64,000 nucleotides of DNA from Treponema sp. (GTDB lineage: Bacteria; Spirochaetota; Spirochaetia; Treponematales; Breznakiellaceae), in the NCBI GenBank assembly GCA_031268385.1, contig JAIRXH010000036.1:3584-67583 (forward strand), written 5' to 3'. This document shows, piece by piece, positions 1,877-50,273 of the stretch (position 1 is its first letter; each line of letters starts with the position of its first letter). A program made the translations under genes and the position numbers. The notes below the pieces were generated by a model. It saw only the letters and a program-made list of their open reading frames with translations. It was not told the DNA's origin and searched no databases.

Positions 1877-1910
1877 CAAGGGAACCCCTTTTTCCCATGA
1901 TTATCCGGGT

Positions 1911-2573: not shown

Positions 2574-2582
2574 CCGGACAAT

Positions 2583-4157: not shown

Positions 4158-4160
4158 CAG

Positions 4161-4182
4161 GCTGTTGAAACAGCGGATTTTT
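4161..4182 (+). terminator. weak intrinsic terminator candidate after the GH57 gene
   Basis: GCTGT-tgaa-ACAGC stem-loop followed by GGATTTTT, 4 nt after the stop codon. The stem is only 5 bp. Confidence 0.3.
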
Positions 4183-4211
4183 GCCTGTCTTGTCAGGCCG
4201 CTTCCCGTTTT

Positions 4212-5489
4212 TCAGAAATCAAGCCGCTGCATGGCGTCTATTTGCCGCTCGACTTCAAGCGCGCGGGTAAGGACGGCAAGGTTTTCACGGGCGGGCTCGA
4301 ATTTGGGGTTAAGCCTCAGCGCCTCGTTCCAGCAGGATTCCGCCTCGCTGTAGTTTCCCCCCGCGTAGGCGTCAAGGCCGGCAAGGTACAGTTCGTCGAC
4401 CTTCGCGGCAACGGCTCCCCTTCCCTGATCCCCCAGATCAAAACGGACCCCCACGCTGACCCGGTTAAGGGGCTGCAGCTGGGTCAACAGATCCAGCGTG
4501 TAATTCACGTCCACGGCGATGGATTTAAGGGTTATGGCGCTGCCAAAGGCCACCCGCACATTTCCGTGTTTCGCCAGAAAACCCGCCCGCATTGAAAGAA
4601 AATTCGTGACATTGACGGAAACACCGGTAGACCAGTAGGGTTTTTCGGACAACTGCGGATCCTGAAGGTTGAGCGGAACGGAAAAATCAAAGGCGAAGAG
4701 CAGCGGCCGCATGGGCTGATAGGACAGGGCGGCGGTCATAACCGTGGGAAGGGGATCGCTTTTGGCCGGCGGCCCCAGATTCCGTATCACAAAGGCCAGG
4801 GATGTATTCCGGTCCCGCGACTGGTACGGCTTCAGAAAGTCGAAACGGGTCAACACCCCCAGATCCCCCATAACCATGGCCGCCGACTGGGATTTCCCCG
4901 AACCGGCTATGATATTGTCCTCGTTGTCGGTGTAATCAGGCACAAAACGGAAGGCGCCCTTGAGGTTGACCCCCACCGAAACGCCCGAAAAGTAATAGCC
5001 CGACAAGAAATTGTAGGAGGCGTTGAGAATGGCGATCACCTCCGAGTAATACCCCTTGGACACCCGTTCGCCAAAGAAGTTGTATTCGGTAAAGGGGGTA
5101 AAAAGCCATTTTCCCCCCGCGGCAAAACCGAGGTTTTTGTAACGGGAAGCGAAGGCCGCCCCCTCTATCTTGGTGTCCGCTATCCAGTTGTTGTGAAAAA
5201 AGGCCAATTCCGTTTTTTTGAGCATGGAAGAACCGGCCGGATTGAACTCGATGAAGGAAATATCGTCGGCAACCGCGCTGAAAGACCCCGCCATGCCTTC
5301 GGAACGGCCCCCCATGGGTATATTCAGAACGGGGAAGGCCGTAAGGCCGGCATTGTCGTCGGGACCGTATATTTTGTCCAGATATTCGGAAATCGAGTAA
5401 TACCCGTCAGGATTGAAATTGGCGGCCCCGGCGGCGGCGGCAAGCGTGAAAACAATAAAACCGGAAAAGAGGAGCCGTTTTCTGTTCAT
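4212..5489 (-). CDS. UPF0164 / FadL-like outer-membrane beta-barrel protein with C-terminal TPR-like helix pair
   Basis: Signal peptide MNRKRLLFSGFIVFTLAAAAGA. The motif PMGGRSEGMAGSFSAVADDISFIEFNPAG is typical of the Treponema UPF0164 family. The body has alternating beta-strand-like sequence. The C-terminal ~70 aa (YLAGLDAYAGGNYSEAESCWNEALRLNPKFEPAREN) is TPR-like. Confidence 0.8.
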   Translation of the reverse strand: MNRKRLLFSGFIVFTLAAAAGAANFNPDGYYSISEYLDKIYGPDDNAGLTAFPVLNIPMGGRSEGMAGSFSAVADDISFIEFNPAGSSMLKKTELAFFHNNWIADTKIEGAAFASRYKNLGFAAGGKWLFTPFTEYNFFGERVSKGYYSEVIAILNASYNFLSGYYFSGVSVGVNLKGAFRFVPDYTDNEDNIIAGSGKSQSAAMVMGDLGVLTRFDFLKPYQSRDRNTSLAFVIRNLGPPAKSDPLPTVMTAALSYQPMRPLLFAFDFSVPLNLQDPQLSEKPYWSTGVSVNVTNFLSMRAGFLAKHGNVRVAFGSAITLKSIAVDVNYTLDLLTQLQPLNRVSVGVRFDLGDQGRGAVAAKVDELYLAGLDAYAGGNYSEAESCWNEALRLNPKFEPARENLAVLTRALEVERQIDAMQRLDF

Positions 5490-5572
5490 TTATCCTTACT
5501 ATACCCTATCTTACAATATATATCGGAAAAAATAATATTTCTATGATATTATAATATACTGTAGAAGGCTCT

Positions 5573-8500
5573 TTGAAACCGGAGTTTCGAAAGAAAGCCT
5601 TGGAATTAACGGGGAATTTCCGGGCCTTTGCTACAGGGATTTTCCGGGAATTCCGATATAGAGGACAGGTATACCTTGCAATGAATGCGCAGAGCCCTCC
5701 GGGGGGCGTCCGCCTCACGGGGCGGATTTTCGGGTTGTTGGCGGTCTGCTGGTCTCTGGCAGCGGCGGTTTCCCCGCTTTACGCGGGGGGAAGGATGGAT
5801 GGGGATCTGTCCCGCGCCGACCGCCTCATCGCGGAAAAACAGTACGACGAAGCCATAAGGGTCCTGTCCGAATACATCAGAAACAACCCCGATGACTTTG
5901 AAACCGCCCGGAAAAGGCTGAAGCGGATAGAGGCGTTCAGGGATGAATACAACGCTGTCGCCAGCGAGCTTTTGACGACGGTATCCTCGGATCCGGGAAA
6001 CGCCTCGAAGATCCTCTCCCTTATCCAGCGGCTTCAGAGCATAGAATCCCCCAACAACCCCAATGTTCAGGCCTTCATCGGCCGCATCCAGGCCATAGCC
6101 CTGTTCACCTACAACCGGAACAGGCTGGAGCAGATCCTTTCGGCCGGGCGCGAGGAACTGGCCAGGGCCAATTTTGAGGGGGCCCTTGCCCTCTACGCCG
6201 GGGGCATGGATATTTACCGCGATGAATTTTTCAGCGCCGGATACGGGGAGGAAACGGAAAACCGGGTGCGGGCGGGCATAGCGGATATAAACGCCGAAAC
6301 GGGTGGATTCCCCGCCATTGTCCGTTCCCTTGAACAGAACGCGGCGGAAATGGAGCAGTCGGGAACCGGAAACACGTCCCTTGTCCGTCTGGAAGAAATC
6401 TACGGCCGCCTTATCCCCGGACTCGACAATCTGACCCGTTCCCGTAATGTGCTGCTCGATGCCGGAAATTATTTTGACGAAGAACTTGCCCGGCTGCAGG
6501 CCGATAATCCCGAAATTGGGGACCGCTCCTTCCTTTCGTTCGCATCCCGTCTTGTTCACGGCCCTGCCCGCGCCGAATTTCCCGAAGGAATGCTCGGCGC
6601 GGTGGAAGGTTACTGGAACAGTGTAATGTCCCGCGCGGAAAGAGCGGCGCTGAATATTGCCGAACGGAATTACACGGCGGGCCTGACCGGTCTTTCAAAC
6701 GGGGAGTACGCCGCCGCCGCTTCCTCCTGTGAAAACGCCCGGCCGTATCTCGATTTTCTCCTTTCACTTTCCGGGAAATGGAACGAATTCATGCACGATT
6801 CGCCGTCGTTTACCCTTTTCGGCGTTTCCGTACCCAGGGAGAAATTCGGCGATTTTCTCATGTATCAGGCTTTGGACGACGCCCTTTCGTATTTTGTCGA
6901 CGGAGCGGATCTGGGCCGGCGTTTTGCCGGGGCGCCGGGCGGCGATTCCGGCGCGATCTCCCTGTGGCAGAGCGGTTCCCTCGATTCGGCGGAAGCGGAA
7001 CGGCGCGAAGGGCAGTACCGGGAGGGATTCACCGTTCTTTACACCGAGGCCGAAACGCTGATCCTGGAAATGGGCGGGCGTGAGGACGAATTCCGCGCGG
7101 AAATGGCCGCGGGCCCCGGTCCGGACGGGGAAAGTCCCGCCGGAAAGGATCCGCTTTCCCCCCTGGAGGAAGCCCGGAACTTTATCGTGAGCCTCCAGGC
7201 CCGCATAGGGGAAGAAGAATACGGCGCCGCGGTACGGCAGTACACCATAGCCAACGGGGAATTCGAAAGGCGGGTAAACGGGCGCCGGAGCGAAATGGAC
7301 CAGGGAATCCGCTTCATCGAGGGAACGACCGAAGACGGCCATGTTGTCTATTATCCGGCCGAAGGGCTTGCCATATTCGAGGGCATGAACGCGGCCGTGT
7401 CGGCGGACATCGAGGCCGGAGACATTCTCCTTGAAAGGTACGCCGCGGAGCGGGCCGACATACTGGGCAAAGGGGAAGTGTCCTCCCTTTACGCCTCCGC
7501 GCGGGAAATGGCGGCGTCCCTCGCTTCGCTTGGAAGCAGGGGGGAAAGCCTCATGTCCGCGGCCAGGGCCCAGTCCGACAGGGCCCAAACCTACAGGCAG
7601 GAAGGGGACCGGCTCTTCAGGGAAGCCCAGACCGCTTTGGCCCAAAACAACTTCGACACGGCGCGGGACAGGGTTCGCCAGTCCACCGAGCGGTACAATA
7701 TGTCCCTGGAACTGCAGGAATCCGCTTCCCTCAGGGCCGAATGGGGCAGGCTTGTCGCCCTGGGGAACGAGATCAACCGTGTGGAAAACGAATTCGTGAT
7801 ACGGGATGTCAGGAACTACGTGACCGGCGCCCGGACGAACTATTACGCGGGCAATTTTGAACAGGCCGAAGAACTCCTGGTACGGGCCCAGAACCGCTGG
7901 CGGCGCACCAATGTCGGCGACGACGAGGAAGTGCTCTACTGGCTCAGTCTGGTCCGTAACGCCATGTCGCTGCGTTCAGGCAGGATCATTCCCGCCACCG
8001 CTCCCCTTTACGCGGAGATGAGCCAGCTTTTAAGCGAGGCCAAAAAAAACTACGAAGAGGGCGTGCGTTACTTCAACTCGGGCCGGAGGGGAGACGGAAC
8101 GGTCAAATTTACCGAAGCCCGGCAGAAGACACGGGAAGTAAAGATCATGTTCCCGCTGAACGAGGACGCGGGACTTCTCGAACTGCGCATGGATCAGGTG
8201 GTGGACCCCCGAGCCTTTGAACAGTCCTTCGAGCAGCGCATGCGGGACGCGATAGCCGGGACCAGGCGGAAGTCGATGGAGGCTTTCGCCGATCTGCAGA
8301 ATCTCGCGAAGATCAACCCCCGGTATCCGGGCATGGCCGGCATCATTACCCAGGCGGAAATAGACATGGGCTTCAGGCCCCCGCCGCCCAATCCCGCGGA
8401 TCTTGCCCGGTCCGCCGAGCTTACCGCCGACGCGCGGAGGGTTATCGAGGGGAATCTTTCCGGTCAGTACGAAGCGTCTCTCGTCTGGCTCGATCAGGCG

Positions 8501-8749
8501 CTGCGGCTTAACCCCAACAACACGGAAGCCACCCGGCAAAAGGACATACTCCTTACCCGTATAAGCGGACGCGGGGTTGTCGTGTTTGACAGAAAAACCG
8601 AAGATGAATACCAGCGGGCCGTCAGGGAGTATCAGCAGGGTAATTACCTTGGGGCCTTCGCCAGAATAGAGCAGCTGCTTCAGGATCCCAGAAACCGGAA
8701 TTCCACCCTGATTCTGGAACTTCACCGGAGGCTCCAGTCCCTCTTATGA
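5573..8749 (+). CDS. large periplasmic TPR/helical-repeat protein
   Basis: 1058-aa ORF. The track start is TTG at 5573, preceded by GAAGG. An alternative start is ATG at 5681 (MNAQSPPGGVRLTGRIFGLLAVCWSLAAAVSPLYAGG, signal-like). TPR-like segments occur throughout, for example AEKQYDEAIRVLSEYIRNNPDD and YEASLVWLDQALRLNPNNTEA. The stop overlaps the next start (ATGA). Confidence 0.8.
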   Translation: MKPEFRKKALELTGNFRAFATGIFREFRYRGQVYLAMNAQSPPGGVRLTGRIFGLLAVCWSLAAAVSPLYAGGRMDGDLSRADRLIAEKQYDEAIRVLSEYIRNNPDDFETARKRLKRIEAFRDEYNAVASELLTTVSSDPGNASKILSLIQRLQSIESPNNPNVQAFIGRIQAIALFTYNRNRLEQILSAGREELARANFEGALALYAGGMDIYRDEFFSAGYGEETENRVRAGIADINAETGGFPAIVRSLEQNAAEMEQSGTGNTSLVRLEEIYGRLIPGLDNLTRSRNVLLDAGNYFDEELARLQADNPEIGDRSFLSFASRLVHGPARAEFPEGMLGAVEGYWNSVMSRAERAALNIAERNYTAGLTGLSNGEYAAAASSCENARPYLDFLLSLSGKWNEFMHDSPSFTLFGVSVPREKFGDFLMYQALDDALSYFVDGADLGRRFAGAPGGDSGAISLWQSGSLDSAEAERREGQYREGFTVLYTEAETLILEMGGREDEFRAEMAAGPGPDGESPAGKDPLSPLEEARNFIVSLQARIGEEEYGAAVRQYTIANGEFERRVNGRRSEMDQGIRFIEGTTEDGHVVYYPAEGLAIFEGMNAAVSADIEAGDILLERYAAERADILGKGEVSSLYASAREMAASLASLGSRGESLMSAARAQSDRAQTYRQEGDRLFREAQTALAQNNFDTARDRVRQSTERYNMSLELQESASLRAEWGRLVALGNEINRVENEFVIRDVRNYVTGARTNYYAGNFEQAEELLVRAQNRWRRTNVGDDEEVLYWLSLVRNAMSLRSGRIIPATAPLYAEMSQLLSEAKKNYEEGVRYFNSGRRGDGTVKFTEARQKTREVKIMFPLNEDAGLLELRMDQVVDPRAFEQSFEQRMRDAIAGTRRKSMEAFADLQNLAKINPRYPGMAGIITQAEIDMGFRPPPPNPADLARSAELTADARRVIEGNLSGQYEASLVWLDQALRLNPNNTEATRQKDILLTRISGRGVVVFDRKTEDEYQRAVREYQQGNYLGAFARIEQLLQDPRNRNSTLILELHRRLQSLL

Positions 8750-11700
8750 TTTTTTTAACACGCTTTGCACCGGGAAACCTTGTCTCTTCGAGGTTCAGGA
8801 CCCTTTTTCAGGTTCTCCTCCTTTTCATCGTATGCGCGTACGGGGAAGCGCAGACGGCTTTTTACTGGGAACAGCCGAACCGCTTTTCCCCCGGCGAGGG
8901 CCGTTTTCCAGTTTCCGGCTTTAACGGAGAGCTTTCCGTCATCGTCTGGCAGGAAACTTCGCCCAACAGCCGCGCCAATACTGTCGGCGAGTCGGAGATA
9001 CACGTCTCCCTCGGGGTAAAGTCCGCCGGGGAAGACTGGAAGATATACCGGAACGTGGGGGGCCCCTATTACTATTCGGGGGAAGAACCCGCAATCCTCA
9101 ATGTCAGCGTCGACAACCGGAACAGGATCATCATAGCCGCCGCGGCTTCCGTAACCGAAACGGAGATCCTCATATCGTCCGACAGGGGGGAAAGCTTTTC
9201 CCGCAGCAGGCTCGACAGCGGTTCGGAAAGTTCCATAGCGCCCCGCGTCGCCGTCCGCGCCGACGGGGGGTATCTGCTTTTTATCACCCGCGGATACGAA
9301 CAGTCGCTTTCACTCTACTATTCCCGTTCGGACGACGGGATCACCTGGAGCCCCTTCAGTCCCTTTGTGCAGGGTGGCTACGGGCTCAATCTCAACTTTC
9401 TTCCCACCCACGCCGTACTGGGCTCCACCGATTATGTGATCTTTCAATCCTTTGTCGGCGGCGCCGACGTAATCCCCGCCTTTCAGCTTTACCTGCAGAC
9501 CAGTACGGATAGGGGCCTTACCTGGAGCCCGCCCCGGCGCGTAACCGATTTTCGAGATCCCCTCATGAACACCGGTTCCGACCCGGATCGTTTCGACAAC
9601 CAGCGGCCCCATCTTTCGGTATACGGGAACAGCCTGTTCCTCGTGTGGGAACGGCGTTTCGGCACGGGGTCTCCCCAGATCTACGGGGCCCTTCTCAATT
9701 CCCGGGGAACGGCAAGCGATGTGGAACGGGTGAATACCGAAGAGGCGTACTGTAACAACCCGGTGGGCTTTGTGTACAGGGGAACCCGTACGGCGGTGTG
9801 GTTCGACAACCGCAGGGGGGGAAGCCGCGTCTTCCTTGGACAGCGGGATTCCCTCTCCTGGTCGAATTACGATCTTTCAGGCGGATCGGGGGACGCTTCT
9901 TTCGGAAGGCCCGTCATAGACGGGGACGATCTGCTGGTCCTCTGGCAGATCGTTATCCGGGACGCGGGGTACATCTACACGGTTCTTCCCGATACAACCG
10001 TTACACCGCCGCGTATTGCCGCGCTCAATTTTTCCCCCTCGCGCCGTACACGGGGAGACCGGGCGCGGGTTGCCTGGAGTCCGCCCTTCGATACTTCCGG
10101 TATTGAAGGCTACTCCTGGCTCTGGTCCAGGTCGCCCCTGGAGGAGCCGCTCCGGGAAGTTTTGCTTTATCCGGGGGCAAACGTTTCCCCGTCCATGGAT
10201 CTTGCCGCGGAGGAAGACGGTTCCTGGTATTTCAGCGTCATCGCCCTGGATTACGCGGGAAACTGGTCCCTTCCGTCCCGTGTTGAATTCATACGGGATA
10301 CCACCCCGCCTCCCCTGGTGTCCGTCATTCCTCCCGATCTGGACGAAAACGGGTACCTCGTGTCGAATACCTTTTCCGTGCTGTGGGACCCGCCGGACGC
10401 CCCGGACGTTGCCGGCTACACCTGGAATCTCGAATATATGGGAGGCGCGGATCGCGGCGAGGATTACGAAACCTTCGCCGCGTCCGCCGAAGAGCACGGA
10501 ACGGGAACCGTTCCCGCGGGCGCCGCGGCTCCCGGGAATCAGGTGGAGTATGTCAACCAGGACGACGGAACATGGCGTTTTACCGTCGCGGCCGTGGACG
10601 AGGTGGGAAATGTCGGGCCCCCGTCGAGTATTTTCTTCAGAACAGACAAATACATTCCCCATACCTACGTTACCTATGTGGATTCAGGCCAGGATGAACA
10701 GGGGCTTGTCTCCATACGTGTCATAGGCCGGGGCTTTTCCGTCGGGGGAAATGTGTACCGGATCTTCCTGGACCGGGACGGGGAAGCCCCCTACGACAGG
10801 GAATACACGCTTTCAAACGGGGATTTCCGCATTCTTTCCGACAGGGAAATCACGGGACTGCGGGCGGAAGACATGGAAGAGGGAATCTACAGACTGGGGA
10901 TCTTCCATCCGTCAAGGGGACTGTACGTCACTTCTCCCGCGATAACGGTGAACAAAACGGGAACGGTCAAATTCGGCGACTTCTCAAGTATCTGGGAGCC
11001 TTCCTGGCTCAGGCGGGAAACGCGCCGCGTTGTCGATCCGTCCCTGCTTCTCATTGTCGTTGTCTTCATATTCTGTCTCTTCGGCTTTGCCGCCTCCGTC
11101 AGGGGAATAGGAAACGCCGTCGCCGAAAGCGTCGCGATACGGGTGGAAGCGGCCGCGCTTATAACAGGAGATTTTATGCCTTCGGAAAAGAAAAAACACG
11201 CAGCAAGAATCAGGCGGAGGGGGGGAGGTCTGCGGCTCAAGCTGGCTTCTTTCACCATCGCGATAGTGCTTACCGTGGTCGCCATGGTGTCCCTGCCCTT
11301 GGCCTATGTGATGACCAATACCCAGCGGCAGACCCTGCTCCGGGGACTTTGGGACCGTTCTTCCGTTCTTCTTGAAGGACTGGCGTCAAGCGCCCGTGCG
11401 TACCTTCCGGCGAACAACATTCTGGAACTCGGTTTCCTCCCCGCCCAGACCGTGGCCATACCGGAAGCGCGCTATGTGACCATTACCGGCTACAACGCCC
11501 AGGCCTCGTCATACGGGGATCTGGTGTGGGCCACCAACGATCCTGAAATTCTCGCCAAAATAGATACCGCCGAACTGCAGCCGGGAATATCGCGTCTTGC
11601 CGATGTGCTGAGTCCCCGGCTTGAACAGATCAGCCGGGAACTGAACGAGAGGGCCCGCGCCGAGGTGGGAAGCCTTTCGCGGAGCATAGCCGAACTCAAC

Positions 11701-13371
11701 CAGGAAGGAGTTGCCCTCGCGTCCCGCAATGACGCCGAAAGCAGGCAGCGTTTTCAGGATATACAGGTAACTACAAGCCAGTTAACCGCGCGGTTTACCG
11801 AAGGACTTGCCTCGATAGCCCGCGACATCGGTTCGGAGCCCTCCTTCTCCACCGAGGAGCTTCCCCGCGACGGGGCTGGAACCTACATATTCTTCAAGCC
11901 CGTCATGTACCGGCAGGGGAACGAGGATGTCTACTTCAGGGGCCTTATCCGCCTTGAAGTGACCATAGATTCGATACTCGCCAAAATCGCCGAGGATCAG
12001 CGGGGTCTTGTCAGGCTCATTTTTATCATCGCCTTTATCGCCGTCGCCATAGGAACCATGGGCGCGCTGGTCCTTTCCACCCTTATCATCAGGCCCATAC
12101 GGAAACTGGTGCGGCATGTCGAGCAGATCAGGGACACCGACGACAAGACAAAACTCGCGGGGGTGGACATTCACATCAAGAGCAGGGACGAGATTGCCGT
12201 TCTGGGAAACACCATCAATGACATGACCCACGGTCTTGTCAAGGCGGCGCTGGCGGCTTCGGATCTGTCCATAGGAAAGGAAATACAGAAGAAGTTTATT
12301 CCCCTGGAAATGGACCGGGAAGGAAACAAACTCAGTTCAGGCTACAAGGACACCAAAAACGCCAGCTTCTTCGGCTACTACGAAGGGGCCAAGGGCGTAT
12401 CCGGGGACTACTTCGATTATCAGGATCTTGACGGCCGCTACTACGCGATCATCAAATGCGACGTGGCCGGCAAGGGAATACCGGCGGCCCTCATCATGAT
12501 ACAGGTGGCCACGATGTTCCTCAACTATTTCAAGGCCTGGAAACCCACCGCCAAAGGCATGCACATAGAGGAAGTGGTCTACCAGATCAACGACTTCATC
12601 GAAACCCTGGGCTTCAAGGGACGTTTCGCCGCCTTTACCCTCTGTCTCTTCGATTCCCAGACGGGGGTGGTGCGCTTCTGCAACGCCGGCGACAACATCA
12701 TACATCTCTTTGACGCCTCCGAGGGCCGTATCAAGACCCTTACCCTGCCGGAGACGCCCGCCACCGGGGTGCTTCCGAACTTCCTTGTGGAATCCAAGGG
12801 CGGTTATACCGTGCAGACCATGACCGTCGATCACGGCGACATTCTGTTCCTCTTTACCGACGGTATAGAAGAGGCAAAGCGGAAATTCAGGGACGGGGAT
12901 TTCAGGGAAATCATCTGTACCGAAGGCGGCGCCCCCAACGACACCCCGCACGAAAACCACGTGGTAGGGCAGGGCGATGAGGAAATGGGACCGGACCGGG
13001 TCCAGGCCATTATTAACGCCGTCATGAACAGGGATGTCTATACCCTGCACAAGTGGCACAACCCCGAAGGAAACACCGATCTTTCCTTCGATTTTTCAAA
13101 CTGCGAAGGCAAAGTCGAGGAAGTGATCATGGCGCTGGTGTCGGTGGAAAAGATGTTCCGCTGCTGCAAGGATCCCGGCGCCGGCGAGGATTCCCGCGTA
13201 CTTGTGGACAGGAAGGTGGACGCCTTCCTCAAGGAGCACTTCCTCCAGTACCGTACCTACTGTTCCTACACACGGGAAAACCCTGGCAACGACGCGTATA
13301 TGTATTATACTCACGTTATTGAAGATGATCAGTACGACGATCTTACCATTTTGGGGATCAAGAGAAAGTGA
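8746..13371 (+). CDS. multidomain membrane sensor phosphatase: BNR/sialidase-like propeller + 2 FN3-like + second periplasmic module + HAMP + SpoIIE/PP2C
   Basis: ATG at 8746 overlaps the upstream TGA. Asp-box motifs are SSDRGESFS, SRSDDGITWSP and TSTDRGLTWSP. FN3-like segments read ARVAWSPPFDTSGIEGYSWLW and FSVLWDPPDAPDVAGYTWNL. Hydrophobic spans lie at nt 11044-11103, 11242-11313 and 12016-12090. The HAMP-like segment is RPIRKLVRHVEQIRD...IAVLGNTINDMTHGL. PP2C motifs are GVSGDYFDY, FTDGIEEA and DDLTILG. Confidence 0.9.
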   Translation: MIFLTRFAPGNLVSSRFRTLFQVLLLFIVCAYGEAQTAFYWEQPNRFSPGEGRFPVSGFNGELSVIVWQETSPNSRANTVGESEIHVSLGVKSAGEDWKIYRNVGGPYYYSGEEPAILNVSVDNRNRIIIAAAASVTETEILISSDRGESFSRSRLDSGSESSIAPRVAVRADGGYLLFITRGYEQSLSLYYSRSDDGITWSPFSPFVQGGYGLNLNFLPTHAVLGSTDYVIFQSFVGGADVIPAFQLYLQTSTDRGLTWSPPRRVTDFRDPLMNTGSDPDRFDNQRPHLSVYGNSLFLVWERRFGTGSPQIYGALLNSRGTASDVERVNTEEAYCNNPVGFVYRGTRTAVWFDNRRGGSRVFLGQRDSLSWSNYDLSGGSGDASFGRPVIDGDDLLVLWQIVIRDAGYIYTVLPDTTVTPPRIAALNFSPSRRTRGDRARVAWSPPFDTSGIEGYSWLWSRSPLEEPLREVLLYPGANVSPSMDLAAEEDGSWYFSVIALDYAGNWSLPSRVEFIRDTTPPPLVSVIPPDLDENGYLVSNTFSVLWDPPDAPDVAGYTWNLEYMGGADRGEDYETFAASAEEHGTGTVPAGAAAPGNQVEYVNQDDGTWRFTVAAVDEVGNVGPPSSIFFRTDKYIPHTYVTYVDSGQDEQGLVSIRVIGRGFSVGGNVYRIFLDRDGEAPYDREYTLSNGDFRILSDREITGLRAEDMEEGIYRLGIFHPSRGLYVTSPAITVNKTGTVKFGDFSSIWEPSWLRRETRRVVDPSLLLIVVVFIFCLFGFAASVRGIGNAVAESVAIRVEAAALITGDFMPSEKKKHAARIRRRGGGLRLKLASFTIAIVLTVVAMVSLPLAYVMTNTQRQTLLRGLWDRSSVLLEGLASSARAYLPANNILELGFLPAQTVAIPEARYVTITGYNAQASSYGDLVWATNDPEILAKIDTAELQPGISRLADVLSPRLEQISRELNERARAEVGSLSRSIAELNQEGVALASRNDAESRQRFQDIQVTTSQLTARFTEGLASIARDIGSEPSFSTEELPRDGAGTYIFFKPVMYRQGNEDVYFRGLIRLEVTIDSILAKIAEDQRGLVRLIFIIAFIAVAIGTMGALVLSTLIIRPIRKLVRHVEQIRDTDDKTKLAGVDIHIKSRDEIAVLGNTINDMTHGLVKAALAASDLSIGKEIQKKFIPLEMDREGNKLSSGYKDTKNASFFGYYEGAKGVSGDYFDYQDLDGRYYAIIKCDVAGKGIPAALIMIQVATMFLNYFKAWKPTAKGMHIEEVVYQINDFIETLGFKGRFAAFTLCLFDSQTGVVRFCNAGDNIIHLFDASEGRIKTLTLPETPATGVLPNFLVESKGGYTVQTMTVDHGDILFLFTDGIEEAKRKFRDGDFREIICTEGGAPNDTPHENHVVGQGDEEMGPDRVQAIINAVMNRDVYTLHKWHNPEGNTDLSFDFSNCEGKVEEVIMALVSVEKMFRCCKDPGAGEDSRVLVDRKVDAFLKEHFLQYRTYCSYTRENPGNDAYMYYTHVIEDDQYDDLTILGIKRK

Positions 13372-13403
13372 ACAGGACTTCCGGTGTAACAGGGGGGTTA
13401 ACC

Positions 13404-13721
13404 ATGACATTCGGAGAACGGATGAAGGAAATTGTTGAACAGGGCATTTCGGTTTCAAAGGATCTTGCTGTAAAAGCGGGGGCAAAGGCCCAGGATCTGG
13501 GAGAGCGGGGCGTTCTCATGCTGGAAGTCAGGCAGCTTGAAGGCCAGGCCCAGAAACTTGTCGGCCGTCTGGGAGCCGAGGCGTACGAGGCCTTTGCCGA
13601 ACGGGGCGTCAAGACCCTGGCGGCGGACACCCACGCCGTCAGGATCCTGCTCGCGGAACTTGCCCAGATCCGCGAATCCATCGAAAAAAAGAACACGGAA
13701 CTCCAGTCCCGGAAAAAGTGA
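13404..13721 (+). CDS. small coiled-coil hypothetical protein (105 aa)
   Basis: ATG at 13404 is preceded by AGGGGGG at 13391-13397. The sequence MTFGERMKEIVEQGISVSKDLAVKAGAKAQDLGERG...ELAQIRESIEKKNTELQSRKK is helical and charged. The track start GTG at 13368 overlaps the upstream stop and is an alternative. Confidence 0.6.
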   Translation: MTFGERMKEIVEQGISVSKDLAVKAGAKAQDLGERGVLMLEVRQLEGQAQKLVGRLGAEAYEAFAERGVKTLAADTHAVRILLAELAQIRESIEKKNTELQSRKK

Positions 13722-14830
13722 ATTCAGGGGAAGTCCTCCCCGAAGCCGTCGTGGAACGTTTTGCCATTTACGGCGAACTGGAAACCGTCTGTCCTTTCGG
13801 TTCGGGGCACATCAACACAACCTTTGTTTCACGGTGGAACCAGGCCGGCCTTCGCGTGCGTTATCTGCATCAGCTGATAAACGATCGCGTTTTTCTCCGG
13901 CCCGGCGGGGTCATGGAGAACATAGACCGGGTCACGCGGCACATCGCGTCCATTCTCCGTGAAAAAGGAGAAGAGGATGTCAGCCGCAAAACCCTGACGG
14001 TGGTTCCGTCGCGGGACGGCCGGCTCTTTGTCCGCGATGACGGCGGCGGCTGGTGGCGGACATATTTGTTTATCGAGCGGACGCACACGCTGGACCTGGT
14101 TTCCACCTCCGGCGAGGCCCATTTTCTGGGGAAGGCCATCGGACGTTTTCAAAAACAGCTTGCGGACTTTGACGGAAAGCGGCTTGACGAAACCATCCCC
14201 GATTTTCACAACATGGAAAGCCGTTACCGCTCTTTCCGTAACGCGGTAAACAGGGACCCCCTTGACCGGGCCGGAACGGCCGGCGCCGAAATTGACTTCA
14301 TGCTTGAAAACGAGGAACGGGGCGCCGTTCTCCTCCGCGCCCTGCGTGAGGGGCGCATCCCCGAGCGCGTCTGCCACAACGACGCCAAGATAAACAACAT
14401 ACTCATTGACGACGGGGACAACAGGGCCCTGTGCGTCGTAGATCTTGACACCGTGATGCCCGGAACCTGTCTTTTTGATTCAGGCGATCTGATACGCACC
14501 GTCGCGGCGCGGGCAAAGGAAGACGAGCGGGATCTTTCGCGGGTTGAATTTGATTTCCCTTTTTTCGCGGCCCTTCTCGAAGGTTACCTTTCCGAGGCTT
14601 CCTCCTTCCTTACGACGGGGGAAAAAGAACTGCTTGCCGAATCGGGACGGAACATTACCCATATCATGGCCCTGCGTTTTCTTACCGACTACCTTGAGGG
14701 GGACACGTATTACCATACTTCACGGCCCGGTCATAACCTTGACAGGGCCAGAAACCAGATTGCCCTTGTCCGTTCCATGGACAGACACTGGGAGAGTATA
14801 ACGCGCTTCCTGCGGGAACGGGTGCTTTAG
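13718..14830 (+). CDS. APH-fold phosphotransferase, N-acetylhexosamine-1-kinase (NahK)-like
   Basis: GTG start overlaps the upstream TGA (GTGA). Motifs are FGSGHINTTF, HNDAKINNILID (Brenner-type HxDxxxxN) and VVDLDTVMPG (DxD). Confidence 0.85.
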   Translation: MNSGEVLPEAVVERFAIYGELETVCPFGSGHINTTFVSRWNQAGLRVRYLHQLINDRVFLRPGGVMENIDRVTRHIASILREKGEEDVSRKTLTVVPSRDGRLFVRDDGGGWWRTYLFIERTHTLDLVSTSGEAHFLGKAIGRFQKQLADFDGKRLDETIPDFHNMESRYRSFRNAVNRDPLDRAGTAGAEIDFMLENEERGAVLLRALREGRIPERVCHNDAKINNILIDDGDNRALCVVDLDTVMPGTCLFDSGDLIRTVAARAKEDERDLSRVEFDFPFFAALLEGYLSEASSFLTTGEKELLAESGRNITHIMALRFLTDYLEGDTYYHTSRPGHNLDRARNQIALVRSMDRHWESITRFLRERVL

Positions 14831-14877
14831 CCGCACTTGAAAAAACGGGGTTTTTATTGTAAAAGTGCTGAAGTGTT

Positions 14878-15342
14878 ATGACAAAGGAACCCTTTTACCG
14901 GGACGGACTTCGTTTTTCATGCCGCCGCTGTTCTTCCTGCTGCCGTTACGAGAGCGGTTTTGTTTTTCTCTCCGAAAAAGACGTATGTGTCCTGTCGGCG
15001 GCCCGCAAAATGGAGTATACTGATTTTGTAAAGACATGGTGCCGCTGGGTTCCTTCCGAAGGCGGCCGGGACCGTCTTTCACTAAGGGAAAAGACCGATT
15101 ATGATTGTATCTTCTGGAAGGACGGCTGTACGGTCTACGGGGCGCGGCCCCTGCAGTGCAGAACCTTTCCTTTCTGGTCTTCTGTTGTCGGTTCCCGCGA
15201 AGCGTGGAATATGGCAAAAACAGGCTGTCCGGGCATGGATTCAGGCGCGGCGCACAGCCGGGAAGAAATAGAAACCTGTCTTGCCATGAGGAGGGCGGAG
15301 CCGCTTGTCATGAGAATATCACCTGGCGTAAGGGGGTTGTAG
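14878..15342 (+). CDS. YkgJ-family (UPF0153) cysteine-cluster protein
   Basis: The sequence FSCRRCSSCCRYESGFVFL...DCIFWKDGCTVYGARPLQCRTFPFW matches the CxxCxxCC plus C-rich pattern of the family. Confidence 0.85.
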   Translation: MTKEPFYRDGLRFSCRRCSSCCRYESGFVFLSEKDVCVLSAARKMEYTDFVKTWCRWVPSEGGRDRLSLREKTDYDCIFWKDGCTVYGARPLQCRTFPFWSSVVGSREAWNMAKTGCPGMDSGAAHSREEIETCLAMRRAEPLVMRISPGVRGL

Positions 15343-16283
15343 TGCTGGTTCATTTTTGGGGCGTCCGGGGTTCCCTGCCGTCTCCGCAGCTTCCTTCGCA
15401 GATAAAAAGCAAGATTTCCGCCATTCTGGAGCGGCTTACCCCCGCGGATATAGAAAACACGGAGAACCGCGAACGCTTTCTGGCGGGACTGCCCCCCTGG
15501 CTCTTCGGTACGGTGGGCGGAAATACCCCCTGTGTCAGCCTCGGTTTCGACAATTCCCGCGAACTTGTCGTGTTTGACTGCGGATCGGGGATCCGGGAGC
15601 TGGGTATTGCCATTGGCAGGCAGAAACCGAAGCCGTCCCAGTACCGGGTGTTTTTTTCCCATTTTCACTGGGATCACCTTCAGGGGCTCCCTTTTTTCAA
15701 TCCCGCCTATGATCCTTCGATAACCATGGATTTTTATTCTCCCATGAAAGACCTGGAAGCCGCCCTTTACGGGCAGATGACTTTCCCGTATTTTCCCGTT
15801 CACATGGAATCGATGGGGTGCAAGAAGAATTTTCACTTCATGGACGGCAGGCTGGACATTGACGGCGTCACCATTTCCTGCAAAAAAATGAACCATCCCG
15901 GAGATTCCTATTCGTATATGGTCAACGACGGCAGACGCCGTTTCATTTACGCGACCGATACGGAGCTTTCGGCGGCCGATTTTATCAAAAACGACGAAAA
16001 CACCGAATTTTTCCAGAACGCCGACCTTATTGTCATAGACTGCCAGTACACGCTGGGGGAGGCTATCGAAAAATACAACTGGGGGCACAGCGCGTTCAGC
16101 TTGGCGGTCGATTTTGCCGCCAACTGGGGCATCAGGCACATGGTGCTGTTCCACCACGATCCTACCTACAACGACCGGAAACTTTTCAACATACTCCAGT
16201 CCGCGCGCTGGTATACCGAACGCATGAATATCAAGGGAATCGAGCTGTCGCTTGCCGTGGAAGGGTTGGAAATCAAACTGTAG
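15342..16283 (+). CDS. MBL-fold metallo-hydrolase
   Basis: The in-frame GTG at 15342 shares its G with the upstream TAG and is preceded by AAGGGGG. The N-terminus (M)LVHFWGVRGSLPSP is typical for this MBL subgroup. Other motifs are FFSHFHWDHLQGLPFF (HxHxDH) and VLFHHDP. Confidence 0.85.
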   Translation: MLVHFWGVRGSLPSPQLPSQIKSKISAILERLTPADIENTENRERFLAGLPPWLFGTVGGNTPCVSLGFDNSRELVVFDCGSGIRELGIAIGRQKPKPSQYRVFFSHFHWDHLQGLPFFNPAYDPSITMDFYSPMKDLEAALYGQMTFPYFPVHMESMGCKKNFHFMDGRLDIDGVTISCKKMNHPGDSYSYMVNDGRRRFIYATDTELSAADFIKNDENTEFFQNADLIVIDCQYTLGEAIEKYNWGHSAFSLAVDFAANWGIRHMVLFHHDPTYNDRKLFNILQSARWYTERMNIKGIELSLAVEGLEIKL

Positions 16284-16286
16284 TTT

Positions 16287-17489
16287 ATGAAAATGAACAA
16301 GCCCGGCAGGCCAAAGGTATCGGACGGCGGCAAGTACAATAGACATGACGACAGAATGTCACAAAACAATGGTACGCGAAAAAAAGACAAAGCGCCGAAA
16401 GCCGGAGCCGAACCGCGCAAACCGGGATTTTTCAGGAAATTTGTTTTTTTTCTGATTTTTCTTACCGGAACGGCGATTTTTTTCCTTGTGACAATCCTTG
16501 GAGGGCTCATATATTTTAACGGGGCGCCGACCGCCGCTCCCCGCTCCCTCCCCGACAATTCCCTTCGTGTGGAAGGGGATAGTGTCCTTTACCTTGAAGT
16601 GCGAAAGGGCGAAAGCGCCTGGTCGGTGGGCAGACGCCTTGAGGAGGCGGGGATCATACGGAACAGGTATTTTTGGCAGCTTGTTTCCCGCCTGGGCAGG
16701 GAGTACATCAAAAGCGGCGTCTACCGCCTGGACATTCCCCTGGGACAGCTGGAAATATACCGGATTCTGGTTGAAGGCGCCCAGATGCTGAGCCGGGTCA
16801 CCTTTCCCGAGGGGGCGACGCTGAAAAAATACGCCCGTATCCTTGAAGAGGCCGGAATATGCGGCCAGGCGGAATTCCTTGCCGCCGCCTCCGATCCCGC
16901 CGTCAGGGCCGAATATCATGTCCCCGGCGAAACCATGGAAGGGTATCTGTACCCCGACACCTACTTTTTTCCCCTGAACTATCCGGCCGCCATGGCGGTA
17001 CGGACCATGGCCGGCACCTTTTTCGGCCGGCTTGAGGAAATTGACCCGGACGCGCTGGAACTGTCCGCCGCCGAACTTGAGCGCAGGGTGATCGTCGCCT
17101 CCATTGTGGAACGGGAATACCGTGTCGACGAGGAGGCGCCTCTCATGGCGGGGGTGTTCTACAACCGGCTTGAAACAGGCATGGCGCTCCAGTCCTGCGC
17201 CACCGTGGAGTATGTGATCACCGAAATACAGGGAAGGCCCCATCCGGAGGTACTGTACACCAAGGATACGGAGATACGCGATCCCTACAACACCTACCTG
17301 ACGCCGGGACTTCCCCCCGGTCCCATTTCGGCGCCGGGCAGGGTGGCCCTCGACGCGGCCTTTCACCCTGCCGAAAGCGATTATCTCTATTTTCGCCTGG
17401 TCGATCCCCAGGCCGGCCGGCACTATTTTGCCCGCACGCTGGACGACCATATCCGCGCGGGAGTGCTGTATGTCAAGGGAAGGGGCTAG
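16287..17489 (+). CDS. mltG: endolytic murein transglycosylase MltG (YceG-like)
   Basis: Basic N-terminus plus a TM segment (FFLIFLTGTAIFFLVTILGG). YceG motifs are EGYLYPDTYFF, ASIVEREY, LQSCATVEY, YNTYLTPGLPPGPISAPG and YLYF. Confidence 0.9.
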   Translation: MKMNKPGRPKVSDGGKYNRHDDRMSQNNGTRKKDKAPKAGAEPRKPGFFRKFVFFLIFLTGTAIFFLVTILGGLIYFNGAPTAAPRSLPDNSLRVEGDSVLYLEVRKGESAWSVGRRLEEAGIIRNRYFWQLVSRLGREYIKSGVYRLDIPLGQLEIYRILVEGAQMLSRVTFPEGATLKKYARILEEAGICGQAEFLAAASDPAVRAEYHVPGETMEGYLYPDTYFFPLNYPAAMAVRTMAGTFFGRLEEIDPDALELSAAELERRVIVASIVEREYRVDEEAPLMAGVFYNRLETGMALQSCATVEYVITEIQGRPHPEVLYTKDTEIRDPYNTYLTPGLPPGPISAPGRVALDAAFHPAESDYLYFRLVDPQAGRHYFARTLDDHIRAGVLYVKGRG

Positions 17490-19381
17490 TGGCTTTTATT
17501 TCCAAAACAACCATACAGGAGGTAAACGACAGGCTCGACGCCCTGGCCGTGGTGGGCGATTATGTACGCCTTGAAAAAAGGGGCGGCCGCTACTGGGGGC
17601 TCTGTCCCTTTCACAACGAGAAGACCCCGTCTTTTACCGTCGATCCCGACAGAAAAATGTACCACTGTTTTGGCTGCGGTCAGGGCGGGGGAATCATCAC
17701 CTTCATCATGGAAATGGACAAACTCACCTTTCCCGAAGCGGTTGAAACCCTGGCCAGGCGCTTCGGGATAGAGATTGTCTACGAACACGGCGGATACGAG
17801 CTTCCCGCCGAAGACGGCGGCAAAAAAAGGGCGGAGGAAACGGCCGAATTGTACCGCCGGGTAACGGTAAGTTTTCATCACATGCTTGTCGAAAGACCTG
17901 AAGGAAAAAGGGCGCTGGAATATGTCGAGTCCCGCAAAATAAGCCGGGAAACCGTGGACCGTTTCAGACTGGGTTTTTCCCCGGCGGATCGTCACTGGCT
18001 CTTTCATTTTCTTGTAAAAAAGGGATATTCGGAGGAATTTCTGGCCGTTTCAGGCCTCTTTTCCGAACGCTACCCCCGGCTCGGCTTCTTTTCGGGACGG
18101 CTCATGTTCCCCATAGCCGACAGGCACGGCAATACCGTCGCTTTCGGGGGCCGCGTCGTCCCCGCGTCCCCGGGGGAACCCGCGGTTCCACAGGAACACG
18201 ATCCCCCGGAGGATCCGGCGGCCCGGCAGGAACCAAAGTACATCAATTCCCGGGAATCCGGCTGGTATAAAAAAAGGGAAACCCTTTTTGCCATCGACCT
18301 TGCCCTTCCTGAAATACGGAAAACAAGGGAAGTGTATCTCTGCGAAGGCTATATGGATGTCATTGCCCTTCACGAAGCGGGTATATGCAACGCCGCGGCC
18401 CCTCTTGGAACCGCGTTTACCGATGAACAGGCAAAGCTCCTCCGCCGCTGGGCCGAAAGGCTCAATCTGGTCTTCGACTCCGACGAAGCGGGCCGGACCG
18501 CCGCGGTAAAGGCCATTTTGACGGCCAGACGGAACGGTCTTCCCTGTTTTGTGGTTGCCCCCGAAAACCTTGAGGATCCCGGCGCGGACCGGCCGGCTCC
18601 GAAGGACCCGGCGGATATTTTGCAACTTTTTGGGCCGGAGACATTGCAAAAATGTATGAAATGTTTTATAAATGATTTTGAGTATCTTTTGGCGCGGGGC
18701 GGGAGCATTTTCGACGTATCGAATCCTGAAGGCAAAGCCAGAGCCGTGGCTTTCCTTTTTCCCTATCTGGAAGCCCTGGATTCCGACGTATCGCGGGACG
18801 ACTGTTTTACCGCGGCGGCGGAGGCTTTTGGGGCCGAAAAGGCCGCGGTGCAGAGGGACTACGAAAGGAGACGTTCTGATACACCCCGGCGTGGACAGGA
18901 CGAAACCCCTCATGGAGAGGGGGGGCAAAACGAAAAGCCGGTCGTCATGAACGATGAGCTTTTTTTGCTTGCCGTCGTGGCGTTTAATTTCAACTGGTAT
19001 CCGGAATTCCGCGCGGCCCTTTCCATCAGGGAAATAGAAGATCCCGCCGCGAAGGAACTTTTTGTCGCCATGGAGGAGTGTTTTGTCAACGAGGAATCAG
19101 GCATTGATACGCTCCTTGCGCGAATATCCTCCGCCGTCCTGCGCAATTTCATTGCCGAAAAGGGCGTGTCGGGGGAATTTACCCTTAACACCGAAAGACT
19201 CATAGCCGACGGAATACGCCGCGTAAAGGCAAGGCGGCTTCACCGCAGGCTGAACGAAATTGTCGCCGGAATAAGGAGGCTACGGCATGAGGAACGGGAA
19301 AGTCCCGGAAACAGGCTGGATGATCTTTTGGCCGAAAAAATACAGATAGACAATGAATTACGGCAATTGGAAGGAAAATAA
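17489..19381 (+). CDS. dnaG: DNA primase
   Basis: GTG start shares a base with the mltG TAG. The zinc finger is CPFHNEKTPSFTVDPDRKMYHCFGCGQGG, and the TOPRIM motif is EGYMDVIALHEAG. Confidence 0.95.
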   Translation: MAFISKTTIQEVNDRLDALAVVGDYVRLEKRGGRYWGLCPFHNEKTPSFTVDPDRKMYHCFGCGQGGGIITFIMEMDKLTFPEAVETLARRFGIEIVYEHGGYELPAEDGGKKRAEETAELYRRVTVSFHHMLVERPEGKRALEYVESRKISRETVDRFRLGFSPADRHWLFHFLVKKGYSEEFLAVSGLFSERYPRLGFFSGRLMFPIADRHGNTVAFGGRVVPASPGEPAVPQEHDPPEDPAARQEPKYINSRESGWYKKRETLFAIDLALPEIRKTREVYLCEGYMDVIALHEAGICNAAAPLGTAFTDEQAKLLRRWAERLNLVFDSDEAGRTAAVKAILTARRNGLPCFVVAPENLEDPGADRPAPKDPADILQLFGPETLQKCMKCFINDFEYLLARGGSIFDVSNPEGKARAVAFLFPYLEALDSDVSRDDCFTAAAEAFGAEKAAVQRDYERRRSDTPRRGQDETPHGEGGQNEKPVVMNDELFLLAVVAFNFNWYPEFRAALSIREIEDPAAKELFVAMEECFVNEESGIDTLLARISSAVLRNFIAEKGVSGEFTLNTERLIADGIRRVKARRLHRRLNEIVAGIRRLRHEERESPGNRLDDLLAEKIQIDNELRQLEGK

Positions 19382-43426: not shown

Positions 43427-43481
43427 TCGAATATATGAAAACATTCCCCGAGATGCCTCATTTTAAAATACTACTGAAACC

Positions 43482-43582
43482 GGAGTTTTGCGGTTCTTCG
43501 GCCCTTGGCGCGGTCTGCCTGAATTCCCGCAGCCACCAAAGTCCACATGGTACGAAGCATACACGCCATGCCGCAAAACTCC
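43482..43582 (+). promoter_or_regulatory. candidate structured leader (aptamer-like three-helix element) upstream of prs
   Basis: A perfect 12-bp closing helix pairs GGAGTTTTGCGG (43482-43493) with CCGCAAAACTCC (43571-43582). It encloses two hairpins at about 43505-43539 and 43546-43570. Confidence 0.4.
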
Positions 43583-43585
43583 CCA

Positions 43586-43636
43586 GCCGAAGCCAAAGCG
43601 CAGCTTCGGCTTCGGCCGCTCCCTGTACTTTTTTTT
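43586..43636 (+). terminator. hairpin plus T8 tract (possible attenuator/expression platform) before prs
   Basis: GCCGAAGC-caaagcgca-GCTTCGGC, then a second CTTCGGC copy, then TTTTTTTT at 43629-43636. The prs ATG is at 43662. The U-tract is not flush with the stem. Confidence 0.35.
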
Positions 43637-43661
43637 CCGCTTCATGTAAACTGTCTGCAGG

Positions 43662-50262: not shown

Positions 50263-50273
50263 GGAGTTGCGAG

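Follow-up and report, generated by a model that had tools for sequence, protein, structure and literature searches.

Gene and Domain Organization

The assembly GCA_031268385.1 of a Treponema sp. contains, on contig JAIRXH010000036.1 (positions 3,584 to 67,583 of the forward strand), a stretch of 64,000 nucleotides (nt) that is referred to here as the window. An open reading frame (ORF) on its positive strand at 8746 to 13371 begins with ATG and comprises 1541 codons. It is a real gene for a large inner-membrane sensor in which two periplasmic modules are joined to a cytoplasmic Ser/Thr phosphatase. A preliminary description, made from the letters of the window alone, had presented the product as a three-pass protein ending in HAMP and SpoIIE/PP2C domains; hydropathy, Pfam and AlphaFold2 (AF2) agree on this architecture, to which a signal peptide can be added. 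The features of the protein and of its neighbors are listed in Table 1.

Pfam scans were run on the whole protein and then on isolated pieces, the latter also being scanned with NCBIfam. Two AF2 models, one of amino acids (aa) 36-765 built with 48 family members (mean predicted local distance difference test score, pLDDT, 88.8) and one of aa 760-1541 (pLDDT 85.4), were compared with the PDB using Foldseek. Conservation and charge values refer to approximately 130 family representatives with a mutual identity of at most 50%. Scanned as isolated pieces, the third beta-sandwich, the second periplasmic module and the insert in the PP2C domain gave no Pfam or NCBIfam family.

Table 1. Features of the sensor phosphatase gene and its neighbors in the window. 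TM, transmembrane span; Ig, immunoglobulin; SPI, signal peptidase I.
Feature	Residues (aa)	Position (nt)	Strand	Basis or remark
UPF0164 outer-membrane beta-barrel (FadL/PorV-like) with C-terminal TPR		4212..5489	-	Pfam UPF0164 E 8.5e-55, and TPR
Exported, largely helical TPR protein	1058-aa ORF	5573..8749	+	Likely start ATG 5681; TPR matches
Signal peptide, SPI-type	1-35	8746..8850	+	Mature start near conserved FYWExP
Periplasmic Asp-box (BNR) beta-propeller	36-415	8851..9990	+	AF2, Foldseek, three Asp-boxes
Two Ig-like beta-sandwiches	416-520 and 521-635	9991..10650	+	AF2 strands
Third beta-sandwich, membrane-adjacent	636-745	10651..10980	+	AF2, conservation
TM1, predicted out to in	766-787	11041..11106	+	Kyte-Doolittle peak 3.0; helix in AF2
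Basic cytoplasmic loop including KKKHAARIRRRGGG	788-832	11107..11241	+	Net charge
TM2, predicted in to out	833-857	11242..11316	+	Kyte-Doolittle peak 2.4
Second periplasmic module, PDC/Cache-like topology	858-1088	11317..12009	+	AF2
TM3, predicted out to in	1089-1112	12010..12081	+	Kyte-Doolittle peak 2.7
HAMP domain	1110-1164	12073..12237	+	Pfam PF00672
Helical linker/PP2C domain start	1165-1215	12238..12390	+	AF2 helix, conservation
SpoIIE-type PP2C core, N-terminal part	1216-1380	12391..12885	+	Pfam SpoIIE, Foldseek
Family-specific alpha/beta insert in PP2C	1381-1520	12886..13305	+	AF2, end of Pfam match
Final PP2C strand with DDLTILG, and stop codon	1521-1541	13306..13371	+	Conservation
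Small all-helical protein, no Pfam/NCBIfam family	~105 aa	13404..13721	+	15 related loci, closer clade only

A Conserved Family of the Spirochaetota

An identical protein is annotated as a "SpoIIE family protein phosphatase" in a Treponema metagenome-assembled genome (MAG), and 114 full-length orthologs of 1490-1600 aa share 58-89% identity; they come from termite-gut treponemes as well as from the complete genomes of Leadbettera azotonutricia, Breznakiella homolactica, and Treponema primitia. When only the ectodomain served as query, searched against a single sequence from each 50%-identity cluster, 789 matches were obtained, 201 of them with E < 1e-30, and among the matches listed nearly all are 1500-1650 aa in length, down to 28% identity. 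When genomes were scanned at one per GTDB species, at least 537 loci were found to encode a relative. The best 80 of these, on which the synteny and copy-number figures rest, are all full-length and all from the Spirochaetota, and come from Treponema, Breznakiella, Gracilinema caldarium, Sediminispirochaeta, Spirochaeta, and MAGs of gut, rumen, sediment, and hot spring origin. Within these 80 there is one phosphatase locus per genome, bar one duplicated contig pair. A homolog search with the distant member P0269 returned five proteins only, and the cluster names of ten distant representatives were nearly all blank.

The protein had been characterized as a chimera, with a survey of fused versus split forms suggested. 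Fusion is the normal state, seen in more than 100 orthologs, and what looked like a one-off belongs to a conserved single-copy spirochete family that is already annotated. The shorter entries in the databases stop at varied places and share no recurrent split point, a pattern typical of genes truncated at contig ends. A few members exceed the usual length by 150-330 aa (P0131 and P0290, 1866-1867 aa; P0262, 1725 aa; P0266, 1705 aa; P0248, 1694 aa) and, since they still align end to end with the query, appear to carry extra inserted segments.

The PP2C Module, Its Linker and Its Insert

The C-terminal part of the protein matches SpoIIE (PF07228) over aa 1230-1385 with E 1.1e-25 and 91.1 bits, where the cut-off is 25, and the motifs by which a PP2C domain had first been recognized, GVSGDYFDY, FTDGIEEA, and DDLTILG, are present on an alpha-beta-beta-alpha PP2C fold. 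Foldseek aligns the catalytic domain with RsbX (3w40, TM-score TMt 0.82) and Pseudomonas aeruginosa RssB (3f79, 0.71), as well as with the RsbU domain of Rv1364c, SpoIIE (5ucg), and SiaA (6k4e). At the sequence level a family profile matches Rv1364c (E 6e-5), RssB, and SpoIIE (5mqh) in the PDB, while single-sequence phmmer against the same database gave weak sialidase matches and did not find the PP2C domain.

The metal-binding motifs are all strongly conserved: D1221 (SGD), D1239 (CDVAGKG), and D1372 (TDG) are 100% conserved, and in the last motif (DDLT) D1531 reaches 99% and D1532 100%. By motif, these aspartates correspond to the metal-ligand motifs of SpoIIE, whose ligands are Asp610, Asp628, Asp746, and Asp795 (PMC3517971). 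Because they are retained at 99-100% over approximately 130 divergent representatives, the PP2C module is very probably an active enzyme. Outside the catalytic residues, conservation is greatest in the linker GKEIQKxFIPL, in which Q1181 and L1187 are 100% conserved and which is helical in the AF2 model (helix aa 1149-1183). Work on RsbU has described PPM phosphatases, HAMP-linked ones included, as dimers that are switched via crossing helical linkers (PMC12143880).

The SpoIIE match covers the profile only as far as position 142 of 192, reached at aa 1385, whereas DDLTILG follows at aa 1531; approximately 105-140 residues therefore appear to be inserted into the domain. The segment at aa 1381-1520 is modeled as a confident alpha/beta subdomain with pLDDT above 90, and six of its residues (R1382, E1412, R1418, D1449, R1472, and D1488) are 95% or more conserved. 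An insertion of about 150 aa ahead of the last motif, containing Cys and His residues, had been proposed; a folded insert of ~105-140 aa is indeed found at this position, but its Cys and His residues are not conserved (C1391 0.40, H1402 0.25, H1405 0.41, H1438 0.45, C1453 0.66, and C1473 and C1474 about 0.01). A Cys/His metal cluster in the insert was rejected as unlikely for this reason. At the level of a guess, the insert may provide a docking or regulatory surface.

Signal Peptide and Membrane Topology

In all 45 ortholog N-termini inspected, a basic n-region is followed by a hydrophobic core and then by an AxA-like site ahead of FYWE. A lipoprotein reading through Cys30 was rejected, as this residue varies among the orthologs and the phosphatase is therefore unlikely to be a lipoprotein. 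The hydrophobic spans previously placed at nt 11044-11103, 11242-11313, and 12016-12090 coincide with TM1, TM2, and TM3, each on a clear Kyte-Doolittle peak. The short, very basic loop seen between the first two spans, which contains KKKHAARIRRRGGG, proves to be a property of the whole family: across 130 members the mean net charge of the TM1-TM2 loop is +6.2 (standard deviation 1.8), with values of -0.5 after TM2, -0.3 before TM3, and +1.4 after TM3.

In the AF2 model of aa 760-1541, TM1 is a helix that is followed by a disordered basic loop, and a single helix (aa 814-886) then leads from the predicted cytoplasmic face through TM2 and into the second periplasmic module. The helix of TM3 runs unbroken into HAMP, with the long linker helix next. 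What had been called a HAMP-like linker is matched by the Pfam HAMP family above threshold (E 1.1e-8; 35.7 bits against a cut-off of 25) and lies directly after TM3. The signal peptide, the charges of the loop and the flanks, and the position of HAMP support a topology with the propeller-Ig arm out, the loop in, the second module out, and HAMP-PP2C in. The out-in-out-in arrangement put forward at the outset is thus upheld, and with it the view that two different extracytoplasmic modules are carried on one cytoplasmic phosphatase, whose PP2C aspartates are invariant or nearly so.

The Propeller-Ig Arm and the Second Periplasmic Module

AF2 predicts an all-beta fold for aa 36-765, consisting of a propeller (pLDDT about 90) and then three beta-sandwiches. 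Three Asp-box motifs that had been placed at about nt 9175, 9322, and 9500 are found in the propeller, namely SSDRGESF at aa 144 (nt 9175), SRSDDGITW at aa 193-201 (nt 9322), and STDRGLTW at aa 253 (nt 9502). In Foldseek searches of the PDB the propeller resembles glycoside hydrolases, lyases, and sialidases, with E values between 1e-9 and 1e-12 and 11-16% identity to the templates. The best matches are the GH145 proteins BT3686, BACCELL_00856, and BACINT_00347 (TMt 0.66-0.67); others include the "putative neuraminidase" BACOVA_03493, a PL42 rhamnose-glucuronate lyase, and PL24/25 ulvan lyases, with GH33 sialidases and trans-sialidases at lower TM-scores. By sequence, PDB sialidases match at E 4e-5.

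The sialidase-like BNR propeller of the preliminary description therefore holds as a fold, on the evidence of AF2, Foldseek, and profile hidden Markov model (HMM) matches in orthologs, but not as a family assignment by HMM and probably not as a sialidase enzyme. On the isolated piece BNR scores 25.8 bits (cut-off 27) and BNR_2 26 bits (cut-off 31.4), BNR, BNR_2, and Big_13 also stay below their cut-offs in the whole-protein scan; a few orthologs do have precomputed PF13088 matches. The propeller is probably seven-bladed, judging from the DSSP strand order (~28 strands) and from an "xP" motif that recurs on seven inner strands (aa 55, 114, 166, 220, 288, 339, and 389). The GH145, PL42, and PL24/25 enzymes, to which the best TM-scores were obtained, have seven-bladed propellers.

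The catalytic set of sialidases consists of an (F/Y)RIP arginine with two more Arg, a Tyr/Glu nucleophile pair, and an Asp acid/base. In the family, R53, which occupies the RIP-like position within an RFP motif, is only 46% conserved, R287 and R303 are the only Arg of the propeller conserved at 85% or above, and within aa 36-415 this level is attained by no Tyr and no Asp; sialidase activity is for these reasons unlikely. A set of conserved polar residues in blades 4-5 (Q234, Q247, N285, Q286, R287, E302, and R303) could form a putative binding site. Of the earlier label "glycan-binding-like", the resemblance in fold stands, while the catalytic set of sialidases is not conserved.

The part of the arm that had been read as an FN3 pair does contain two beta-sandwiches, however these are Ig-like with Big_13-type DxxGN motifs rather than fn3 by HMM, and the third sandwich had been missed. 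The first two domains carry the family-wide invariant motifs D502-x-AGNWS and D618-xxGN; Big_13 (22.6 bits, cut-off 27) and fn3 (PF00041; E 0.11, 13 bits, cut-off 25) both fall below threshold on this pair, and the FnIII domain of chitinase A1 (1k85) matches the family profile at E 0.027. Conserved positions in the third sandwich are GRGF..G, Y715, H721, and R724.

The second periplasmic module, already recognized as a hydrophilic region of about 230 aa, is modeled as a folded alpha/beta domain in which a long helix accompanies a sheet of five strands, with a helical hairpin inserted at aa ~956-1024 (pLDDT 85-92). No Cache family was found on the isolated module with Pfam or NCBIfam. The region of sensor, TM span, and HAMP gives a weak match to the NCBIfam model WalK (E 2e-7), and Foldseek matches the membrane-sensor-HAMP part to the WalK-YycH model 9a5d. 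Together with the order of its elements, these weak matches suggest a PDC/Cache-like module with an extra helical hairpin.

Genomic Neighborhood

The gene for the TPR protein lies immediately upstream of that for the phosphatase, and the end of the one overlaps the beginning of the other by 4 nt. Orthologs of the TPR protein in 56 loci all have a signal peptide ending ...YA/GG, and the protein is therefore predicted to be exported. The UPF0164 gene lies upstream on the opposite strand; its product matches the PorV/PorQ family of the type IX secretion system with E 1.2e-20, although the score does not reach the 90-bit cut-off. PorV and PorQ bind beta-sandwich domains of cargo proteins, a possible hint as to how the barrel might meet the Ig-like arm. 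The order UPF0164 (-), TPR protein (+), phosphatase (+) was recovered by tblastn in essentially every sufficiently flanked locus of the 80, and the synteny of the trio persists to 39-40% phosphatase identity. Upstream of the trio, a DUF4912 gene and a GH57 glucan-branching enzyme gene (1578-4157, +) form a pair that is kept in most related loci.

A promoter and terminator scan of positions 4000-17600 was uninformative: 15 sigma-70-like consensus sites were observed, with 5.1 (standard deviation 1.8) in shuffles, and none lies convincingly 5' of the TPR-phosphatase pair. On the downstream side, clustering of the genes in 39 loci revealed no conserved STAS or kinase gene; what recurs there is the small helical protein, in 15 loci, and a zinc-ribbon/TM protein, in 8. 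In the window, the small helical protein begins 33 nt past the phosphatase stop and overlaps the next gene by 4 nt; the eight loci of the other clade encode in its place a zinc-ribbon protein of ~120 aa with a C-terminal TM helix (e.g., L059 20971-21333). Two genes after the phosphatase stands an APH-fold phosphotransferase (13718-14830, +; kinase-like, E 3e-10), which is probably unrelated to the phosphatase, being confined to its two closest relatives (L001 and L025). It opens a run that continues with CxxCxxCC and metallo-beta-lactamase-fold proteins, MltG, DnaG, RpoD, MreBCD, PBP2, and RodA. A link between the phosphatase and the cell-wall genes of this run (MltG, MreBCD, PBP2, and RodA) was rejected, as the synteny is limited to the two closest relatives. 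As listed, the CxxCxxCC ORF (14878-15342) and the metallo-beta-lactamase-fold ORF (15105-16283, +) overlap by ~240 nt, and the latter probably starts at a later codon.

Elsewhere in the window, an 801-aa ORF at 36822-39227 (-) fuses a cytidylate kinase (aa 3-214) to a multi-S1-domain ribosomal protein S1. The last ~150 residues of a 991-aa ORF at 49983-52958 (+) make up a complete GreA/GreB transcript-cleavage factor, preceded by an N-terminal extension of ~830 aa without an assigned family. Three ORFs on the negative strand have no Pfam family: 33869-34606 (245 aa), 43458-43928 (156 aa), and 46417-47568 (383 aa), the last of which sits between two TPR proteins.

The Treponema pallidum Protein TP0854 and Related Systems

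In the tables of Houston et al. (2018; PMC5956850) on T. pallidum, TPANIC_0854 is a "putative membrane protein" of 1533 aa with an RssB PP2C template at 1158-1371 and sialidase templates at 22-342, 99-399, and 103-499. The same tables list TPANIC_0855, of 1127 aa with a TPR-like region at 946-1072, and TPANIC_0856, which was modeled on the FadL-family protein TbuX; the three genes are adjacent (PMC5956850). With 1533 aa against 1541 aa, and with the same trio, sizes, and domain positions as in the window, TP0854 appears, from the published tables and from synteny, to be the T. pallidum member of the family. Later proteomics papers name TPANIC_0854 a "SpoIIE family protein phosphatase" and possible sialidase, detected by mass spectrometry, and this literature treats it as a possible sialidase or virulence factor and not as a sensor phosphatase. 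A literature search found no functional study of any family member, no study of Treponema HAMP-SpoIIE phosphatase function or of spirochete STAS partner switching, and, for TP0218, TP0219, and TP0233, only a yeast two-hybrid mention of TP0233.

Several characterized phosphatases resemble the protein in part. RsbU of Chlamydia trachomatis, the sensor phosphatase of the Rsb partner-switching system, is likewise an inner-membrane protein with a PP2C output that has been retained in a reduced genome; its periplasmic sensor is flanked by two TM helices, and its target is a STAS anti-anti-sigma factor. It differs in having neither a propeller-Ig arm nor a 140-aa insert, in having two TM helices instead of a signal peptide and three, and in that its partners RsbV and RsbW are known. 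P. aeruginosa SiaA, of the SiaABCD module, shares the order of membrane anchor, HAMP, and SpoIIE-type PP2C, with a faint NCBIfam SiaA match over the TM-HAMP part, however it lacks a large periplasmic propeller and forms one operon with the genes for its substrate SiaC and its kinase SiaB, whereas the conserved neighbors of the phosphatase are the exported TPR protein and the outer-membrane barrel. Bacillus subtilis RsbU, RsbP, and SpoIIE and Mycobacterium tuberculosis Rv1364c have the catalytic fold, the metal-ligand motifs, and a helical linker upstream of PP2C in common with it, but are soluble, or polytopic without periplasmic sensors, and have no insert between the TDG and DD motifs.

On the periplasmic side, GH145 BT3686 and PL42 FoRham1 align with aa 36-415 at TMt 0.60-0.67, and the PL24/25 and GH33 enzymes share the fold, the sialidases at lower scores, with Asp-box motifs as a further resemblance to these propeller enzymes; unlike in these enzymes, the propeller is here a tethered module of a signaling protein. 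The hybrid two-component sensors of Bacteroides likewise place a periplasmic propeller and an Ig-like arm on a membrane signaling protein. They differ in their Reg_prop propellers, in their histidine-kinase/response-regulator output, in their many paralogs, and in their association with polysaccharide-utilization loci. The family is large and already annotated, and for T. pallidum some of its architecture is on record in published tables; among membrane sensor PP2C phosphatases it stands out by its dual ectodomain, by the insert in its catalytic domain, and by its conserved envelope partners. To our knowledge, no described PP2C sensor phosphatase combines a propeller-Ig arm, a Cache-like module, a catalytic insert, and a linkage to TPR and outer-membrane-barrel proteins.

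Proposed Function and Alternative Explanations

We favor, with some reservation, the interpretation that the protein is the termite-gut member of a spirochete-wide, single-copy family of sensor phosphatases that take the state of the envelope as input and act on STAS partner switching as output. In the topology set out above, the signal peptide exports the propeller and the three-Ig stalk (~730 aa together), which TM1 tethers to the membrane, and TM2 and TM3 bracket the second periplasmic module at the place where histidine kinases carry their sensor. The path from TM2 through this module to TM3 and HAMP may then act as the direct transmitter, with the propeller-Ig arm as a co-sensor that extends into the periplasm. 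In a phosphatase acting as a dimer, a periplasmic input could shift HAMP and the linker helices and so turn PP2C on or off, as for RsbU and for HAMP-, PAS-, and GAF-linked PPM phosphatases. The input probably belongs to the cell's own envelope, for instance a glycan of the wall or membrane or the two partner proteins themselves, and is less likely to be a nutrient glycan tied to one niche, because the protein is single-copy, orthologous across very different habitats, and encoded beside the exported TPR protein and the outer-membrane barrel in essentially every locus with enough flank. As output, the phosphatase would remove phosphate from a Ser/Thr of a partner-switching protein of STAS type whose gene lies in another part of the genome. 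Characterized SpoIIE-type phosphatases act on STAS or STAS-like proteins, and it is from this knowledge of the family that a STAS-type output is proposed.

Several points weigh against this interpretation. In line with the preliminary description, which had reported neither a STAS nor an anti-sigma gene, no STAS protein, RsbW-type kinase, or alternative sigma factor was found in the scanned ORFs of the 64-kb window, and the 9 kb downstream of the phosphatase in 39 related loci likewise showed no STAS, RsbW-like, or alternative sigma gene. RssB, the best match by structure, comes from a family in which some members are adaptors without catalysis. The argument for an endogenous envelope signal is purely comparative, the topology derives from hydropathy and charge, the Cache/PDC assignment from secondary-structure order and weak matches, and the orthology of TP0854 from published tables and not from sequence alignment.

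The kind of ligand is where an alternative has most to offer. The propeller may bind an exogenous acidic oligosaccharide, such as a uronic- or sialic-acid glycan of the termite gut or a host, with the phosphatase controlling genes for glycan utilization, comparable to the use that the hybrid two-component sensors of Bacteroides make of periplasmic propellers. All of its best structural neighbors are carbohydrate-active enzymes or lectins (GH145, PL42, PL24/25, GH33, and a PLL3 lectin), Asp-boxes are present, and the GH57 branching enzyme and DUF4912 genes are frequent nearby. We nevertheless consider a nutrient-glycan sensor rather unlikely, as single-copy orthologs occur in spirochetes of the termite gut, rumen, hot springs, and sediment and, according to the literature, in obligate pathogens, no transporter or glycoside-hydrolase operon is conserved next to the phosphatase in the related loci, and BNR propellers are known from proteins without glycan binding as well. 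If the propeller were instead an active sialidase or glycosidase of the periplasm or cell surface, the protein would be a bifunctional enzyme with the phosphatase as a separate activity. The sialidase templates for TPANIC_0854, at 99% Phyre2 confidence (PMC5956850), the weak sequence matches to PDB sialidases, and the sialidases among the Foldseek matches point this way; yet the sialidase catalytic set is not conserved, template identity is 11-16%, the better matches are seven-bladed GH145 and PL proteins and not six-bladed GH33, BNR_2 stays below its cut-off, and the propeller is predicted to be tethered to the inner membrane and not exposed at the surface. We accordingly give a bifunctional enzyme very little credence.

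An equally slim prospect attaches to a pseudo-phosphatase or scaffold, in which the PP2C domain would be a binding adaptor, like Escherichia coli RssB, within an envelope-spanning complex. RssB PP2C-like domains are among the top Foldseek and profile matches, the large conserved insert could be a docking surface, and the kinase or STAS partner was not found nearby (9 kb downstream, 39 loci), but the retention of all four metal-binding motifs across the representatives is unexpected for a pseudo-enzyme. That the gene is an artefact, with two or three genes joined by mis-assembly or a frameshift, has only its unusual length and mixture of domains in its favor. The preliminary description had allowed for an assembly fusion of two genes, and this can be set aside as virtually impossible: the same full-length form occurs in more than 100 independent assemblies, the complete L. 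azotonutricia and B. homolactica genomes among them, and the scattered ends of the shorter entries are those expected at contig ends.

Returning to the envelope-state sensor, its conserved neighbors permit a more speculative extension, which we regard as improbable in its full form but worth stating. The UPF0164 barrel with its TPR tail, the TPR protein of ~1050 aa, and the phosphatase might together make up a spirochete-specific signaling complex that spans the envelope. The propeller-Ig arm would in that case reach roughly 10-15 nm into the periplasm, and the complex could report the state of the outer membrane or wall, such as the uptake of hydrophobic nutrients or the integrity of the envelope, to a cytoplasmic partner-switching cascade.

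Implications for Spirochete Signaling

Signal transduction in spirochetes is poorly understood, and the phosphatase is a plausible core envelope-state sensor in these bacteria because it is single-copy across them and apparently both kept and expressed in T. pallidum. TP0854, which has been listed as a possible sialidase virulence factor, is argued here to be a sensor phosphatase, and its two conserved partners, together with STAS proteins, are pointed to as targets. T. pallidum has very few signaling proteins; if the envelope-spanning complex exists, it would be one of the few environmental sensors retained in the minimal genome of the agent of syphilis.

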